From: Escherichia phage E26
Length of the DNA: 64,000 nt
Sequence record: MN655998.1
Strand: one strand, 5' to 3'
This document shows, in pieces, positions 15,094-62,634 of this stretch (its first letter is position 1; every line of letters begins with the position of its first letter). The position numbers and the translations under genes are program-made. The notes under the pieces were generated by a model that searched no databases, had not been told where the DNA came from, and was given only the letters and a program-made list of their open reading frames with translations.

Positions 15094-16025
15094 TGTTTGA
15101 TTTAAATGACTTTAACGAACAAGCCGCTAACCTTGACTTTCAGCGATCTAACTTATTCAGCGTGGCATTTGCCACCACTCCAAGTAATAAGACACAAGCG
15201 ATCCTAGAAAGTATGGGCGGTGCGGTATATGATATTATACCAAATGCATTAAATGACTATTTCGGGATTACTCGTGGTGATTATACTGACGCATTAACAA
15301 ATCTTGCTGTACAGGGTGTTAGGCGTGCTGTTGATTCATCTGGTGTCAAAAAGTATCTTTTAGGTGCAATGTCATCCCGCGTAGTTCAATCTCTTCTGGG
15401 GCAATTTGATGTTGGTACATATGCGCTTGACTGGTTCAATATGGCATATAAGACAAGCGGTCTTCTGGTGTATGCTGTTAAGGTTCCAGAAAACAGATTG
15501 AATTATGAAATGGACCGTAACCACAATGCGCCAAACATTCGAATTACCGGACGTGATTTCGATCCGCTTGTATTGAGCTTTAGAATGGACTCTAGCGCAT
15601 CAAACTATCGAGCAATGCAGGATTGGGTTAACTCAGTAGAAGACCCCGTTACAGGGCTTCGTGCGCTTCCTGTTGACGTTGAAGCAGATATTCAGGTCAA
15701 CTTACATAACCGAATGGGAGTTCCTCACACGATCATGATGTTTAATGGTTGTGTTCCTGTTGGTGTGAGTGCACCGGAATTAAACTATGAAAACAACAAC
15801 GAAATCACAACATTCGATGTTACTTTCGCATATCGTTCTATGCAAACTGGTGCTGTAGGAGAGCAAGCCGCGCGAGAATGGATTGAGGATAAGGCAATAA
15901 ACGCAATAACAAACACGTTCGGCAATAATTTACTTGATAGTGGGTTATCTGCTGCTGGTAATGCTTTATCGCGTCTAAATGGCGTTGGTGGGCGTGTGGT
16001 GAATACTGTCACTAACTGGTTCTGA
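15093..16025 (+). CDS. 54: baseplate tail tube initiator gp54
   Basis: 310 aa; synteny and size as T4 gp54. Confidence 0.8.
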   Translation: MFDLNDFNEQAANLDFQRSNLFSVAFATTPSNKTQAILESMGGAVYDIIPNALNDYFGITRGDYTDALTNLAVQGVRRAVDSSGVKKYLLGAMSSRVVQSLLGQFDVGTYALDWFNMAYKTSGLLVYAVKVPENRLNYEMDRNHNAPNIRITGRDFDPLVLSFRMDSSASNYRAMQDWVNSVEDPVTGLRALPVDVEADIQVNLHNRMGVPHTIMMFNGCVPVGVSAPELNYENNNEITTFDVTFAYRSMQTGAVGEQAAREWIEDKAINAITNTFGNNLLDSGLSAAGNALSRLNGVGGRVVNTVTNWF

Positions 16026-16035
16026 TAAGCGAAAG

Positions 16036-16060
16036 GCGGGGATAATCCCCGCCTTTTTAT
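16036..16060 (+). terminator. Rho-independent terminator after gene 54
   Basis: GGCGGGGA-TAA-TCCCCGCC hairpin followed by TTTTTATTT. Confidence 0.65.
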
Positions 16061-16569
16061 TTGATTAAATCATCACATTGTTTGCGTAGTTTATAGCGAT
16101 ACTGTTTTGATTGTAGCAATTGAAGTTTTTCATAATCCCCTTCCTCATATGCAGCCGAAAGATCATCTTGATATGCTGCTTCCGTCCCGATTACACATAC
16201 TCCAAATTTTCTACGACGGTCGGCATCTTCCATTGCTTTGCGATTCATTTCTTCAATTGAATTTTCATGACCATAATAATATTCGTAAATGCGTTTCTTC
16301 TCTGCTTCTTTATCTGCCTTAATCTTTGCGATCTGTTCTGCTGATTCCGGTTGACGACCTAAACGCTGTAATGAGGCGTCTTTCTTTTCAAGGTAGTCAA
16401 TCACGCAATCTTCAACGCTATTAAATGGAAAACGTGACTCTTTCTGCCATCGTTCACATGACCGTACAAACTCGTGTGTATTCTTAGATGCAAGTGCCAG
16501 ATCATGCACAGCGCACCCATTAAGCATAGCCACTAAAGCCGCAAGACCAATCAGTTTAATCATTTTCAT
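16057..16569 (-). CDS. predicted lipoprotein
   Basis: 170 aa; signal peptide MKMIKLIGLAALVAMLNGC with lipobox-like LNGC; ATGA start-stop overlap with upstream Alt-like gene. Confidence 0.6.
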   Translation of the reverse strand: MKMIKLIGLAALVAMLNGCAVHDLALASKNTHEFVRSCERWQKESRFPFNSVEDCVIDYLEKKDASLQRLGRQPESAEQIAKIKADKEAEKKRIYEYYYGHENSIEEMNRKAMEDADRRRKFGVCVIGTEAAYQDDLSAAYEEGDYEKLQLLQSKQYRYKLRKQCDDLIK

Positions 16570-17390
16570 TTAGTCACCTCACCGAAAATTGTAAATTGTC
16601 TACGATTCTCATCACCGAAAGATTCTACTACGTCGTTTACCTTGACGCAAGTCCCGCGCGGTAAAATTACTTCACATTCGCAAGGATTCCATGCAATTGA
16701 CCCAACAACAAAACCTTTATGATCTTTTACGTCAATTACCCACGATACATTACAAGAATGTTGCATCTTTCCGGTCATGGATTCATATCGATTCTCACAA
16801 TAAAGGCTAGTGCTGTTTGATAGCCAGCCTCCAAAGATGATCGGTGTCATGCTGGTTGACACAAAGTTTTTAAAGGTAAATTCCTTATCTTCAATAATAC
16901 GCTCTATTGTCTGAATGTCAAGATGTTGACCGCGATAAAGAGTACCGTTTAACTTTTCGGTTTTATCCATGACGCAATCCATCAAATCAACAATCTCTGA
17001 TATCTCATCGGTCATGTCTTCTTCCCCTAAGAGAGCACCATTTACCCATTCGTATTGTTCAGACACATAATCACAGATTGCATTATATTCTGCTGGGGTT
17101 ATGTTGTTATGTTTGTAATGTTTGAATACATTATCTCCAAAGTCTTCGGAGTGTACTTCATACATCACATTAATGATTTTCTTGACAAATCCATAATCTT
17201 GTGTCTCACGCTCAAGGAAGCGGATAACCTTCACATAATCATCAAAGTTAATCTGATCGCTGATCATCTCAGTGATCATGTAACCATTAATCCCCTCAAT
17301 GTCATATGTTTCGATGTAATTATCCATACGTTCCATCATTGATTCGCGTGATTCTTCTGAAAGACGAAAATCCTGTAATTTCTTGAACAT
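16566..17390 (-). CDS. Alt-like ADP-ribosyltransferase paralog (catalytic domain only)
   Basis: 274 aa; R-S-E ART motifs LYRGQHLD, FVSTS, ECEVILPRG, parallel to those in the adjacent Alt. Confidence 0.7.
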   Translation of the reverse strand: MFKKLQDFRLSEESRESMMERMDNYIETYDIEGINGYMITEMISDQINFDDYVKVIRFLERETQDYGFVKKIINVMYEVHSEDFGDNVFKHYKHNNITPAEYNAICDYVSEQYEWVNGALLGEEDMTDEISEIVDLMDCVMDKTEKLNGTLYRGQHLDIQTIERIIEDKEFTFKNFVSTSMTPIIFGGWLSNSTSLYCENRYESMTGKMQHSCNVSWVIDVKDHKGFVVGSIAWNPCECEVILPRGTCVKVNDVVESFGDENRRQFTIFGEVTK

Positions 17391-17409
17391 TTTAAGCCTC
17401 CCATATAAC

Positions 17410-17442
17410 AGAAAACGGGGCTAGTATAAAACTAGTCCCCGT
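17410..17442 (-). terminator. Rho-independent terminator (minus strand) after alt
   Basis: ACGGGGCTAGT/ACTAGTCCCCGT inverted repeat; U-run on minus strand. Confidence 0.55.
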
Positions 17443-17468
17443 TTGAGTCAACCATTATTTCTTAAAAA

Positions 17469-19520
17469 TTACATTTTAAATTTATCTGGCATTGCGTCTA
17501 CAGATACCAGATCAGCGATAAGCTGACGTAGAGTTGCCTTATCTGCTTTCTTACGTTCGGTTTTAGCTTCGCTAATGAAGCTGGAGAAAGACAGGTCAGA
17601 AGCAGGTTTAACAACACCTTCACGGATGAATGCATCACCGTCCGCGATCATCTCGCCAGATTCTTGTAATGCTGCCAGTTCATTTTTGTTCATAATATGT
17701 GCCTCAATGTAATAAGTTTCTTGTGAATCCGTCGATGCCGTAGCACGAGTTACCGTATCAAAGGATAACACAACACCGCGAGGAAGTAAAATCTCGCATT
17801 CTTTGTAAGCAAATGCTTTGTTACCTACTGGCAAGACAGGGATGTTTTCCGCGCCAGCAATGGAGAAAGCAACATTAGCGCCACCTTCACCGCGAGAGCC
17901 AGCCATAGAATCAACACCAGCAACGGCACTAGCCACGTTTGCATTCCAGCCGCCAAAAATGTTAGGTGCAAGGGAAGTGCTCACATAGTTTTTAAAGTAA
18001 AACGCTTTTTGCTTACGTGCAGTTTCCCACATTTGCGACCGGAAGTCCATACCACGATACAGAATAGTACCCGGATCAAGTTTAACTCCATAGTTGGAGA
18101 AGGCATTATCCAGTGCATCGCACATCTTGACCAATTCTTCTGGATCTGCGATGCCTTCAAACTCTTCCAGCTTACGATCAGTTAGGAAGTTGTTCATATT
18201 GATGTATGCTGCATCGGCATATTCGCTCAATACAAAACCTTCCGCGCCAGGCAGATCAAGATCAATATCTGCCATCATTTCACCCATGTTGCTAGCAATT
18301 GCTTCAAACATACCGGAAGCAACATTACGTAGGGCATCGGTTTTAATCTGTGTGATGTGACTACGCAGCATTTCAGCTTTTACATCTGCTGGCATAGACT
18401 GGTCTACTCGATCCATTGCCAGGGCGGTGATCTTGTTTTCGAATACTTCCTCGCTCATGATTTCTTTTAAGCGTTTGATTGATGCTGCGATAACTTCCGC
18501 AGACAACGGATCATATTGATCCTGAACTTTTACCAGTTCGCTTACTGCGTATTTTGCATCGGCTTCGCTTTCAAAAATAGTACGCATGAAACCATAGCGA
18601 GTGATAATATCACTTGTCCAGTCATTCAGAGAACGGGCGGTTGAACGTTCTAAGGCTTGACGATCAATCAGAGTATTAAACTGTTTCTTAGGTTCGGCTT
18701 CGGTGATATCTTCTTCTGGTTTAAGATTAATTTTTTCTGGATGATTCACGTAGTCGCTGTTATATGTCGCTTGAGTTTTCAGCATTTCTTCTTTAGTCAA
18801 ACGAGATTTAGCCGCTACGCGTTGTTCTGCTTCCGCGTTTCGTTCTTCTTCTGACACAAGACTAGCCGCATATGCCTCATCTTTAGTCAGAGATTCACCA
18901 GTAGCCTTAGATACCCAGCGATCACCTAAATCACTTTCTACTTTAGTGAACAAGGATTCATCAAGTTTAATCCCTTTAATCTTATCAATCGCCATCCCGC
19001 GACGCTTGACAACAACTAAAGCGATCTTTTTGCTGGTCATTACTTCCTGCTGGAATACTTCAAACTTCGGTGTACGACGCACCAAACGCTCTATAACGCG
19101 CTTAACCAGTTCGGTCTTACCTTTCATGCGGGATACGTTAAAACGGAACATAACAGCGTCTAATTGCGCTTTACGGGCTGTTTCCATAACCACATCAAAA
19201 GCACTTGCCATAACTGCAATCGGGTTATCGCCTAGACCATTTTTAAGCTGTACAATACGACCGCTTTTGTTCATTTCGCACAGTACAACATGTGCGGTTT
19301 TGTCACCCATACGAATGATTTTAGGTGTTTTGTTGGTGAAGTTACAAAGACGGACAATCACATCTTTATCGCGTGTCTGTACTGCAAAAAGCTGTTTAGG
19401 ATTCTGCTTAGGCTTTAAGCACTGTACCGGAGCAATACTGCCAAAGTTTTCTTCCTCTTCCGTCAACAGCCATTTCTCGAAAGATTCAATCATTAGATCG
19501 TCGATTTCTAAGTTAAACAT
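17469..19520 (-). CDS. alt: Alt ADP-ribosyltransferase
   Basis: 683 aa; ART motifs LYRGMDF, YVSTSL, ECEILLPRG; size and position as T4 Alt. Confidence 0.85.
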   Translation of the reverse strand: MFNLEIDDLMIESFEKWLLTEEEENFGSIAPVQCLKPKQNPKQLFAVQTRDKDVIVRLCNFTNKTPKIIRMGDKTAHVVLCEMNKSGRIVQLKNGLGDNPIAVMASAFDVVMETARKAQLDAVMFRFNVSRMKGKTELVKRVIERLVRRTPKFEVFQQEVMTSKKIALVVVKRRGMAIDKIKGIKLDESLFTKVESDLGDRWVSKATGESLTKDEAYAASLVSEEERNAEAEQRVAAKSRLTKEEMLKTQATYNSDYVNHPEKINLKPEEDITEAEPKKQFNTLIDRQALERSTARSLNDWTSDIITRYGFMRTIFESEADAKYAVSELVKVQDQYDPLSAEVIAASIKRLKEIMSEEVFENKITALAMDRVDQSMPADVKAEMLRSHITQIKTDALRNVASGMFEAIASNMGEMMADIDLDLPGAEGFVLSEYADAAYINMNNFLTDRKLEEFEGIADPEELVKMCDALDNAFSNYGVKLDPGTILYRGMDFRSQMWETARKQKAFYFKNYVSTSLAPNIFGGWNANVASAVAGVDSMAGSRGEGGANVAFSIAGAENIPVLPVGNKAFAYKECEILLPRGVVLSFDTVTRATASTDSQETYYIEAHIMNKNELAALQESGEMIADGDAFIREGVVKPASDLSFSSFISEAKTERKKADKATLRQLIADLVSVDAMPDKFKM

Positions 19521-20083: not shown

Positions 20084-20112
20084 ATTATAGGGGATCACCG
20101 ATCCCCTGTCAA
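20084..20112 (-). promoter_or_regulatory. PeSL-like early promoter cassette 2
   Basis: TTGACA-GGGGATCGGTGATCCCC-TATAAT; perfect palindromic spacer with two GATC sites. Confidence 0.6.
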
Positions 20113-20676
20113 CAACTTTTTTGAATTATTTTTTAATTGCTCATCTTGTAATAGAGCAATAACATGCTGGCGATGTTCTTCCGATTGAGGCACACCGAAA
20201 AAGTTTGTTTTGTAGAAATATTCTAATCGATCTTCTCGTGTGCTCTCTTCCATCATGATCGCGGGTAGTCCGAGATTTCGGAAACGTCGCTTTTCTGCTG
20301 GCGTAAAATCACTGTAATACAACATAGAATCATCATTACCAGCAATGCTAAACTCATCTTTCATAAAGGAGAATATTGCGTTTAAACGCTGTTTACCGTC
20401 CACGATTTCGATCTCATAGCGAGAGCCATCATCAATCTTAGCCATTGCGATAGCACCAACCGGAAAATCATTAATCAGGTTTTCGATAAACATACGTTTG
20501 TTTTCGGTGTCCCATACCAAAGGACGCTGATAATCTGGGTTCATGTTGATATAGCCATCTTCTAACCACGCCTCATAAACAGAGATGACAAAGTTTTTAG
20601 TATTGGTATAGTAACGGCGTTTAGGCGTTAAACGGTTCATGTTATAGTCTCCTGAATGGATCATCACGTAAATCAA
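20095..20676 (-). CDS. DUF262 (ParB-like / GmrSD N-terminal domain) protein
   Basis: 193 aa; signature motifs PDYQRPLVW and VDGKQRLNAI. Confidence 0.7.
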   Translation of the reverse strand: MIYVMIHSGDYNMNRLTPKRRYYTNTKNFVISVYEAWLEDGYINMNPDYQRPLVWDTENKRMFIENLINDFPVGAIAMAKIDDGSRYEIEIVDGKQRLNAIFSFMKDEFSIAGNDDSMLYYSDFTPAEKRRFRNLGLPAIMMEESTREDRLEYFYKTNFFGVPQSEEHRQHVIALLQDEQLKNNSKKLLTGDR

Positions 20677-30447: not shown

Positions 30448-31065
30448 TTATTTATATTTCGCGACCTTTGGATTTCTCCGCAGACCGGAATGTATTTGCG
30501 CTATACAACAATAAGAAACATTAAACATATCAGCTATAATTTGCTTCTTAACTTTTCCTTTAAGCCGCATTATTTCTTCGACTTGCGCATTTGTCAGTTT
30601 TGCCCGTGAGTGGTTTTCACCGACATTGTTATTGAGTCCAGTTCTAAATGAATGTCTCATATTTTCTAGTAAGGTTACTATTTCTAGATTCCACACATAA
30701 TTGCAGGTTTTTACACCATTGATGTGATTAACCTCAAGTCCGGTAACGTCTCCTAGAAATGCATTTGCTACAAGTCGATGTATCTTTTCGGCTTTAACTG
30801 AGATTTTACCATTGTCTTTTTGTTTTGACAATGTTGAATAATAATATCCATATCGGTCTAAAATTGGTTTTATTATTTTACCAGCACGTTTTTGTTTTAC
30901 GAGCTTAATATTACCGGGAGAAACTTCTCTATAAAATTCGATACTTCGGTCAATAGATCTCAATCTACCATAATTAGAGATTTCATACCACGGATAACCT
31001 ACAGCTTGTCTCCATTCTTCCGGCGCTGGTAATACGATATTATCATCTTTTGTTTCCATTGTCAA
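30448..31065 (-). CDS. HNH homing endonuclease with NUMOD4-like N-terminus
   Basis: 205 aa; WYEISNYGRLRS (NUMOD4-like) and HRLVANAF...EVNHINGVKTCNYVWNLE (HNH_3). Confidence 0.75.
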   Translation of the reverse strand: MTMETKDDNIVLPAPEEWRQAVGYPWYEISNYGRLRSIDRSIEFYREVSPGNIKLVKQKRAGKIIKPILDRYGYYYSTLSKQKDNGKISVKAEKIHRLVANAFLGDVTGLEVNHINGVKTCNYVWNLEIVTLLENMRHSFRTGLNNNVGENHSRAKLTNAQVEEIMRLKGKVKKQIIADMFNVSYCCIAQIHSGLRRNPKVAKYK

Positions 31066-45657: not shown

Positions 45658-46251
45658 TTACTTGTCAAATACTTTATTAATTATATCTAACAACTTTGGT
45701 TTTCTATTTTCAAATTCTAACATTTCTTCGGGAGAAATGTCAACTACTTCTGTTTTATGAAAGAAATCAGGATCTATTGCATCGGCAACAAAGTTTCTAG
45801 CTAACGCAGCGGCCTTTTCGTAATCATAAAGACCTAGATACAAAAGTTTCCCTCTATCAACCTGAATACATGCTTTATATTTACCATCTCGTTTATAAAA
45901 ACTTACTCCGATATACTCAGACGTCTTACCTTTTTGCTTTCCAACATTTCTTGAGTTTTGTTGGTCGGTCGCATCTCTCAAGTTTTCAATCCGATTATCG
46001 GTTATAACTCTGTTTACATGGTCAACACATTTTGGCATATATCCATGATGCATGAAGAAAATTATTCTATGCTCTTTGTGCAATCGACCATCAAACTTAA
46101 CTACTCTATATCCAGTTCTTGGATTTACATAGCCCGCTCTAGATCCGACTTTATGCTTTCGGTTTGTCGATATCTTGCGAATCAGCTTACCGTTATCATA
46201 TTTAAAGAGTTCATGACAACGAGCATACAATTCAGGGTCATATGTTTTCAC
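45658..46251 (-). CDS. HNH endonuclease with AP2-like DNA-binding domain (freestanding)
   Basis: 197 aa; HVNRVITDNRIENLRDATDQQNSRN (HNH_3) plus SEYIGVSFYKRDGKYKACIQ (AP2-like). Confidence 0.7.
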   Translation of the reverse strand: MKTYDPELYARCHELFKYDNGKLIRKISTNRKHKVGSRAGYVNPRTGYRVVKFDGRLHKEHRIIFFMHHGYMPKCVDHVNRVITDNRIENLRDATDQQNSRNVGKQKGKTSEYIGVSFYKRDGKYKACIQVDRGKLLYLGLYDYEKAAALARNFVADAIDPDFFHKTEVVDISPEEMLEFENRKPKLLDIINKVFDK

Positions 46252-61833: not shown

Positions 61834-62634
61834 TTAACCCTTCTTATATTCGCAAACATATTGAGTACCATAATCATAGCTAATGCGACCTTTCTCGATG
61901 ACTTCAAAGCGGATTTCATCGTTTTCCCCTACCCACATTTTGTACTCGTTGAAGTATCCTGCTACATCCGGTTTGCTCATACCAACAACCATATTTTTAT
62001 ATTGTTTGCTGCGTGTCAGATTTGATTTAAACACTTCGCGCTCATCAACATATACGAAAGAAGACAATTCACCTTCGGTCATGGTCATTTTCAGCTTGCC
62101 GCCCTTGTTGCCATAAGTAGAGTTGCCATACAATGGATCTTTGCGGCTGTCTGTTTCAATACCATCAATGATTTTCCATGTAAATTTTGCAATGCACTGA
62201 TAAGTGATAGATCCAGAGATTTTCTCTTCTTTCTTCTGTTCTTCCACCACTTTTTCTTCCTGTTTCGGTTGTTCTTCGTCAACCTTCACAGAAGTCTCTG
62301 AATCGCTTTCTGATGCGGTTTCTTCTTTAGGTAATACATTCATCAAGTTTTGGATTTGAGCGTTATATACAGCCTCCAGTGGCTGGATCTGCCCGATATT
62401 GATCATTGTATCACGAACAGTTTTATTCCAGTTGCGTTGCTCTTGTTTAAGAGACGGATCAATCTTAACAGCCTTAACATACACTTCATGAAGTTTAGAA
62501 TCCAGTGCGGAGATTGACTCATTAGCACAAATAAACTTCTCTGATTTGGTAGTAGCTTTAGCGCAATCGAAGGAAGCAGCATTAGCACCGAAAGCAGTAG
62601 CAGAAAGAACGATAGCAGCGATAATGTTTTTCAT
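61834..62634 (-). CDS. secreted DUF1311/LprI-like protein
   Basis: 266 aa; signal peptide MKNIIAAIVLSATAFGANA; FDCAKATTKSEKFICANESISALDSKLHEVY...QRNW pattern typical of DUF1311. Confidence 0.55.
   Translation of the reverse strand: MKNIIAAIVLSATAFGANAASFDCAKATTKSEKFICANESISALDSKLHEVYVKAVKIDPSLKQEQRNWNKTVRDTMINIGQIQPLEAVYNAQIQNLMNVLPKEETASESDSETSVKVDEEQPKQEEKVVEEQKKEEKISGSITYQCIAKFTWKIIDGIETDSRKDPLYGNSTYGNKGGKLKMTMTEGELSSFVYVDEREVFKSNLTRSKQYKNMVVGMSKPDVAGYFNEYKMWVGENDEIRFEVIEKGRISYDYGTQYVCEYKKG

Follow-up and report, generated by a model that had tools for sequence, protein, structure and literature searches.

The 64,000-nucleotide stretch of Escherichia phage E26 analysed here (sequence record MN655998.1; the whole stretch is called the window below) comes from an RB49-like T4-type coliphage of the genus Krischvirus and carries, directly after the gene alt, a gene for a short Alt-like ADP-ribosyltransferase followed by a gene for a predicted lipoprotein. 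We read this pair, with a probability of roughly 0.55, as an operon of two genes that is conserved among RB49-like phages and whose products would act in different compartments and serve separate functions. The three open reading frames (ORFs) lie in series on the minus strand, with coordinates and motifs exactly as in the original prediction, which had been made from the letters of the sequence. Their principal features are the following, with the evidence used given in brackets and lengths in amino acids (aa).

17469..19520, minus strand: alt, encoding the full-length Alt-like ADP-ribosyltransferase of 683 aa, presumed parent of the short paralogue (ORF list, Pfam, PHROG).
16566..17390, minus strand: short Alt paralogue of 274 aa (RB49p183/ORF183c), predicted R-S-ExE mono-ADP-ribosyltransferase (Pfam, PHROG, model).
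16932-16934, 16857-16859, 16677-16679 and 16671-16673, minus strand: codons of the predicted catalytic residues Arg153, Ser178, Glu238 and Glu240, respectively, of the short enzyme (motif position).
16057..16569, minus strand: predicted outer-membrane lipoprotein of 170 aa in the position of RB49p182 (phrog_16112, no assigned function) (ORF, PHROG).
16513..16569, minus strand: lipoprotein signal peptide with the lipobox L-N-G-C, the codon of Cys19 being 16513-16515 (alignments and rule check).
16083..16541, minus strand: hypervariable cassette, corresponding to the mature part of the lipoprotein (DNA identity profile).

Over the 1.7 kb around the locus the window is 99.8% identical to phage vB_EcoM_011D4, and 58 phage records match, all of them RB49 relatives. 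Both the enzyme ORF and the lipoprotein ORF are kept in the 58 Krischvirus records. Because of this conservation, the match of the enzyme to Pfam family PF03496 and the ratio of non-synonymous to synonymous substitution rates (dN/dS) of the enzyme, both given below, the two ORFs are real genes and not chance ORFs.

The mature lipoprotein is encoded by a hypervariable cassette of about 460 bp with sharp boundaries within DNA of 97-100% identity, an observation that is new here. Identity of the window to the phages RB49, Skers and KFS-EC falls to 23-50% from about position 16541 to about 16083, whereas the flanks retain 97-100% through alt and the enzyme gene, 98-100% over the signal peptide down to about 16542, and 98-100% in gene 54, which converges on the lipoprotein gene from the opposite side. 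At the protein level, the enzyme and gp54 of the window are 100% identical to those of RB49 and the mature lipoprotein 28%; in comparison with JK32 the figures are 97% for the enzyme and 44% for the mature lipoprotein. Three deep allele classes (the window, JK32/Whisky and RB49 types) could be drawn from seven aligned Krischvirus genomes, with 24-44% mutual identity and an enzyme identity of 97-100% throughout. The lipoprotein is the most divergent positional orthologue among the 83 window ORFs compared with RB49 (about 52 kb), the two phages being nearly identical otherwise, and the window allele, 170 aa long against 161 aa in RB49, was otherwise found in only five phage records. As lineages become more distant, the RB49-type allele and the enzyme diverge to a broadly similar degree; the window and JK32 types give the impression of imports.

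Exchange appears to occur within the gene as well. The AV108 allele (L009:2501-3013, compared with window 16024..16189) is 92-100% identical to the window in DNA over its 5' three quarters and 65-83% thereafter, and at the C-terminus its residues KEYRYKLRKQCE are those of the JK32 type, a mosaic that suggests recombination inside the lipoprotein gene. Moreover, the K/E-rich middle of the gene shows in-frame length variation (family members P0013, P0015, P0041 and P0042). The gene is also inactivated in nature. A 32-nucleotide (nt) out-of-frame deletion between AAAGAAGCG repeats was found in two independent samples (L023:1626-2079 and L024:864-1317), one of them represented by a contig of 164,986 bp, and a 1-nt insertion giving a +1 frameshift in a third (L025:3299-3790). 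In all three, which are metagenome assemblies and so bear only indirectly on viability, an intact 274-aa enzyme lies beside the frameshifted lipoprotein.

The upstream partner had been proposed to be a second, short ADP-ribosyltransferase that keeps the catalytic part of Alt without its long N-terminal region, and this description was borne out on both counts. The short enzyme carries the motifs TLYRGQHLD, NFVSTSM and CECEVILPRG, which correspond to ILYRGMDF, NYVSTSL and KECEILLPRG in the window Alt. It matches PF03496, the Alt/VIP2/C3-like family (E-value (E) 4.3e-16; 59.3 bits, the cut-off being 23.4), over residues 82-266, that is, positions 2-187 of the 196 of the profile. The catalytic Arg, the S-T-S and the E-x-E are intact: R153 of the YRG motif, S178-T179-S180, E238 and E240 are invariant in relatives of the short enzyme down to 40% identity and in the window Alt, and in the alignment with Alt, ModA and ModB that the original prediction had proposed, E238 and E240 are invariant with T4 Alt, ModA and ModB. 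The AlphaFold2 (AF2) model (pLDDT 81.8, pTM 0.77) has an ADP-ribosyltransferase fold and matches the solved structures of Vis, C3bot, Certhrax, CDTa, C2-I and iota Ia with E of 7e-11 to 1e-8 and target TM-scores of 0.6-0.65. Judged by family, motifs and predicted fold alike, the short enzyme is a bona fide ADP-ribosyltransferase of the R-S-E clade.

The neighbouring Alt matches phrog_802 over its full length (E 7e-180), carries PF03496 at residues 425-610 and is 27% identical to T4 Alt across 695 aa (E 8e-58); its homologue in locus L025, likewise of 683 aa, also matches the N-terminal family PF26846 (Tevenvirinae_ADPRT). The short enzyme, unlike this neighbour, has PF03496 as its sole Pfam match and does not match PF26846. 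Of the 674 positions of the Alt profile phrog_802 its alignment covers only 330-602, leaving out the N-terminal region of about 330 residues (the PF26846 region) and the C-terminal tail ending in MPDKFKM, and it thus has neither of the parts by which an Alt orthologue, a capsid-packaged and injected enzyme, would be recognised. No signal peptide or other export signal was found on it.

Pairwise comparisons of the short enzyme within Krischvirus gave 8-24 synonymous versus 0-8 non-synonymous differences, with dN/dS mostly 0-0.03 and at most 0.10; between the window and RB49 there are 12 synonymous differences and no non-synonymous one. Since non-synonymous differences are so few among the Krischvirus genomes, the enzyme must be strongly constrained, and these substitution patterns identify it as a functional gene under strong purifying selection. 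Taken alone, the enzyme is nothing new. A PHROGs family already exists for it (phrog_15144, E 2.6e-198), and RB49p183 (AY343333, NC_005066), whose protein is 100% identical to the window enzyme, has carried the annotation "similar to C-terminal part of T4 Alt" from the deposition of the RB49 genome onwards. Previously, RB49ORF183c, 44RRORF188c and T4 alt.-1/alt.-2 were listed as paralogous duplications of alt (Nolan et al. 2006, PMC1524935).

The downstream 170-aa ORF had been called a lipoprotein, and the signal on which that call depended is present. Its leader, MKMIKLIGLAALVAMLNGC followed by Ala, is conserved between alleles in DNA and in protein. It combines Lys2 and Lys5 with a hydrophobic core and Cys19, so that the positively charged N-region, the hydrophobic core and, no later than residue 35, the lipobox Cys expected of a bacterial-type lipoprotein can all be recognised in the sequence; the PROSITE PS51257-type lipobox rule is satisfied by 29 of the 35 family members, the window allele missing it at position -2. 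In all 35 members residue +2 is one of Ala, Val, Thr and Ser; because it is never Asp, sorting to the outer membrane would be expected. Beyond the lipid-carrying Cys there are exactly four further Cys, at conserved positions, in 32 of 32 full-length members; because these Cys are invariant in number and place, two periplasmic disulfides are suggested. This invariant scaffold of lipobox and four Cys, the tiny size of the family and its fixed position after the enzyme are also new here. Most full-length members (29/32) end in Lys. An Lpp-like attachment through this residue remains speculation, the Lys terminus not being invariant.

The lipoprotein belongs to phrog_16112 (E 3.7e-12), and its AF2 model is all-helical (pLDDT 83.7). 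Nothing significant was found for it in profile searches of Pfam, PADLOC and PDB sequences, and a fold search of the model in PDB and BFVD returned only the lipoprotein itself and the KFS-EC allele. An exhaustive profile search of 1.84 billion representative proteins recovered the family as 10 clusters only, and all contigs that were looked up have it at the same locus. Likewise, nothing on the lipoprotein gene was found in the literature on Krischvirus/RB49 lipoproteins or superinfection exclusion. Several candidate identities were rejected. The Pfam matches Lysis_col and LPAM_1 (E > 0.2) look like matches to the signal peptide. The name 'Outer membrane protein assembly factor' carried by one nr entry (P0020) is seemingly an automated label, the Foldseek match to BamD having an E of 7.8. 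A u-spanin or o-spanin was judged unlikely, as no C-terminal membrane segment is seen in this protein of 170 aa and RB49 has its own spanins PseT.2/PseT.3.

The pair is bracketed by the following predicted expression signals.

17407..17441, minus strand: intrinsic-terminator-like hairpin CGGGGACUAGU-UUUAU-ACUAGCCCCG with a U-tract, after alt (RNA fold).
17423..17451, minus strand: sigma-70-type promoter-like site TTGACT-17-TATACT (consensus match).
16031..16057, both strands: hairpin resembling a bidirectional terminator, which separates the lipoprotein gene from gene 54 (12-bp stem).

The hairpin after alt is GC-rich and followed by a U-run; it folds with -23 kcal/mol (z = -3.3), a value reached by 1 of 200 shuffles. 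The promoter-like site, with 10 of 12 consensus matches, lies about 33 nt upstream of the start of the short enzyme, and its -10 box (TATACT, 17423-17428) sits inside the hairpin, so that both elements share the same DNA. In the divergent locus L014, where the enzyme is only 44% identical, the composite element (positions 196-240) is kept, with the hairpin and with a promoter-like site that reads TTGACA-17-TATACT. From this arrangement, alt transcripts would tend to stop at the hairpin and the two downstream genes would have an early-type promoter of their own. The hairpin beyond the lipoprotein gene, whose stem has 7 GC pairs and T-runs on both flanks, is conserved in L014 as well.

Comparison with related phages places the enzyme closest to Alt itself. 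It is 31% identical to residues 413-593 of T4 Alt (E 9e-20), has YRG, STS and ExEVILPRG in common with it and adjoins alt, but it is 274 aa long, compared with 682-683 aa, and has its own promoter-like site. To ModA and ModB of T4, ADP-ribosyltransferases that are early and non-packaged, it is comparable, by analogy, in its small size, ExE motif and presumed synthesis after infection; it differs from them in an aligned identity of 15-17%, the lack of a tblastn match and a different genomic location, and on sequence grounds it would not be placed in the ModA/ModB family. RB49 has a single ModB-like gene, RB49p014 (L010:8917-9420), located after srd and 33% identical to T4 ModB (E 1.4e-7), and ModA was not detectable by tblastn in the whole RB49 genome. 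The number of ADP-ribosyltransferases in the genus is therefore three (Alt, the short Alt paralogue and the ModB-like enzyme), as in T4.

RB49 has the same genes in the same position as the window pair (RB49p183 and RB49p182; AY343333, NC_005066), the difference being the lipoprotein allele. The original prediction had stated that such an arrangement is not part of the T4 alt locus, and this is correct: T4 has alt.-1, alt.-2 and alt.-3 there, none of which is a lipoprotein. At that same locus alt.-1/alt.-2 form a broken duplicate of alt that covers its N-terminal and not its catalytic part, and Alt.-3 was rejected as a lipoprotein counterpart as it has no signal peptide and no similarity. Aeromonas phage 44RR2.8t has two more alt copies (ORF187c/188c) in a tandem duplication at the same locus and no lipoprotein; its three tandem alt paralogues (L026:11040-15908) are of 642, 639 and 319 aa, and the short one lies upstream, not downstream. 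Comparison of these loci indicates that alt has been duplicated or expanded repeatedly in T4-like phages, each case having an architecture of its own, and that only the RB49 lineage has the lipoprotein.

Based on these results, the operon could have arisen and could work as follows. The short enzyme, presumably a catalytically competent mono-ADP-ribosyltransferase of the arginine type, would have originated when the C-terminal, catalytic half of alt was duplicated and, because it lacks the N-terminal region and the C-terminal tail of Alt and has a promoter-like site of its own, it is probably neither packaged into the capsid nor injected. Its synthesis would follow infection, driven by a sigma-70-type promoter of its own, and it would modify host proteins with cytoplasmic NAD+, the most likely targets being RNA polymerase alpha or translation factors, in a role resembling that of T4 ModA. 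We infer such a ModA-like, post-infection, non-packaged role by analogy, as the most economical reading. The lipoprotein would be exported via Sec, lipidated at Cys19 and, residue +2 being Ala and not Asp, sorted to the outer membrane, where its helical mature part would face the periplasm, presumably held by two disulfides between the four invariant Cys. Its surface would be exchanged between phages as a recombination cassette, and its role would most likely be in conflict at the level of the envelope, for example in excluding superinfecting phages or in protecting against a competitor or defence that acts on the envelope.

The original prediction had taken the ATGA overlap of stop and start as a sign of co-expression and suggested a toxin/immunity-like or exclusion pair. 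The overlap itself is as described (4 nt, 16566-16569, the enzyme ending in ACT AAA TGA and the lipoprotein beginning ATG AAA ATG in the overlapping frame), but it does not serve as a sign of a functional pair. Because such overlaps are frequent in the window (occurring at 24 of 85 same-strand junctions, counted with a crude gene model), it is uninformative on pairing, and in relatives the junction differs, being TAATG, an 8-nt overlap or a 1-nt gap. The lipoprotein gene immediately follows the short enzyme in every fetched locus spanning the site, in about seven lineages, including 4 of 4 divergent metagenomic loci (L014, L018, L020 and L022) with enzymes of 40-62% identity. If the lipoprotein bound and neutralised the enzyme, or shielded the producing cell from it, then adjacency with a stop and start that overlap or lie within 1 nt in all lineages sampled would be expected, and some solved fold relatives of the enzyme are indeed toxin effectors with immunity proteins (e.g., 8za7), with a weak sequence match to Tre1. 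We nevertheless consider such an antidote very improbable. The enzyme has no signal peptide and its partner has signals for export and lipidation, which would place the two in different compartments; an identical enzyme lies beside mature lipoproteins only 24-44% identical, with no co-evolution; and in three samples the gene that would confer immunity is frameshifted and the enzyme intact. The sequences thus reveal neither the shared compartment and co-evolution nor the unlosable immunity gene that such a pair would have. Moreover, the Alt paralogues of T4 and 44RR2.8t have no such partner, fold and sequence searches detected no ARH, macro or other known immunity fold in the lipoprotein, and overlapping junctions are, as said, common across the window. 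A weaker form of linkage is that both products serve one pathway, the effect of the lipoprotein on the envelope requiring, or being coordinated with, the ADP-ribosylation of a host factor for envelope biogenesis or stress response. It would account for a family of 10 clusters among 1.84 billion representatives that stands directly after a short Alt paralogue in every fetched locus spanning the site, even at 40% enzyme identity. However, T4-like genomes by and large keep their gene order irrespective of function, the lipoprotein is swapped or lost without change of the enzyme, and there is no mechanistic precedent; we regard this explanation as rather unlikely.

An exclusion role for the lipoprotein alone is plausible. 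Small exported early proteins that alter the envelope against other phages include T5 Llp and phi80/N15 Cor, both lipoproteins of the outer membrane, and T4 Imm and Spackle, the latter a helical protein of the periplasm. No Imm or Spackle homologue was detected by tblastn in RB49, which leaves room for an envelope-conflict factor there. Masking of the phage's own outer-membrane receptor, by binding and inactivating it as T5 Llp or phi80 Cor do, is the commonest mechanism of exclusion. Such masking, against superinfection and loss of progeny on debris, would suit a predicted outer-membrane lipoprotein of high variability with an early-type promoter, in a genus whose receptor specificity is likewise variable. 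The distribution of alleles disfavours it: across the 58 Krischvirus records the lipoprotein allele tracks neither the type of gp37, the distal tail fibre, nor that of the adhesin gp38. Thus gp37 of 011D4 and G37-3, both with window-type alleles, is 90.9% and 48.7% identical to that of the window and gp37 of ECD7, with an RB49-type allele, 90.1%, and the RB49-like gp38 (at least 95%) and the type of about 82% are both found in each of the three allele groups. In addition, the lipoprotein gene is not adjacent to the receptor-binding genes and has no sequence match to any named family, and own-receptor masking is accordingly quite unlikely. Counter-defence, in which the lipoprotein would neutralise an envelope-associated anti-phage system or periplasmic enzyme of the host and host diversity would drive the alleles, agrees with a hypervariable surface on a conserved scaffold, accessory or dispensable status and an early-type promoter; but the protein has no similarity to known anti-defence proteins and lies in no PADLOC-related context, which makes this role unlikely. 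An envelope-conflict factor was judged to fit best what the sequences suggest of the lipoprotein, i.e., scaffold with variable surface, early-type promoter, dispensability and envelope location. It is doubtful, though conceivable, that the protein founds a new class of such factors limited to RB49-like phages, a helical protein tethered to the outer membrane and stapled by disulfides, whose mature domain would be exchanged as a cassette with the conserved signal peptide and terminator as recombination anchors, and whose strict linkage to an early Alt-derived ADP-ribosyltransferase would stand for a two-compartment module of host takeover or exclusion and not for synteny alone.

Several points weigh against the reading of the pair as an operon of separate functions with an envelope-conflict lipoprotein. 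The lipoprotein has no sequence or fold similarity to any exclusion protein, including Llp, Cor, Spackle and Imm, and shows no covariation with receptor-binding proteins. With Spackle the hhalign probability is 6.7%, on the signal peptide only, and the Spackle entries 6x6o and 7cn6, although in the PDB set, are absent from the Foldseek matches. The promoter is a consensus match, and its early timing is presumed. The sole departure of the window lipobox LNGC from the rule is an atypical Asn at -2; LNGC and LTGC leaders both occur on one mature domain type, in Skers and RB49. Positive selection on the lipoprotein was not demonstrated, dN/dS being 0.22 for the two closest alleles, the sole close pair with DNA, and the deeper alleles being saturated. 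The fixed order of lipoprotein after enzyme could, after all, mean a functional link. Finally, another gene of the window (61834..62634, minus strand) encodes a protein of 266 aa that carries a Sec signal peptide (MKNIIAAIVLSATAFGANA, then AS) and is only 66% identical to the RB49 version. It matches the Pfam domain LprI (E 3.5e-5; 24.6 bits, the cut-off being 22); from this lysozyme-inhibitor domain, it could be a candidate for a periplasmic Spackle-like factor in place of the lipoprotein.

Some other genes of the window were also noted. Three genes upstream of alt, and adjoining a DNA methyltransferase gene, lies an ORF of 193 aa (20095..20676, minus strand) with a GmrSD_N/DUF262 domain (E 3.4e-20), whose best PADLOC match is NsnA (E 1.6e-20). 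Two ORFs for HNH-type endonucleases, 30448..31059 and 45658..46053, both on the minus strand, have the domains NUMOD4 with HNH_3 and HNH_3 with AP2, respectively; these ORFs are absent from RB49 or only 40% identical, and are probably mobile homing-endonuclease insertions.

For the biology of the group, the locus means that RB49-like phages reach three ADP-ribosyltransferases by a route different from that of T4, without ModA, and they therefore offer a natural case for comparing the modification of RNA polymerase and translation factors. The lineage-restricted hypervariable lipoprotein cassette is the only element at the locus that merits experiment. A most divergent orthologue, an invariant scaffold and the exchange of a cassette together form the signature that would be expected if the gene were involved in conflict between phages, or between phage and host, at the envelope. 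Therapy cocktails make use of Krischvirus phages, so that a variable factor of this kind, for exclusion or in the envelope, could affect cocktail compatibility.

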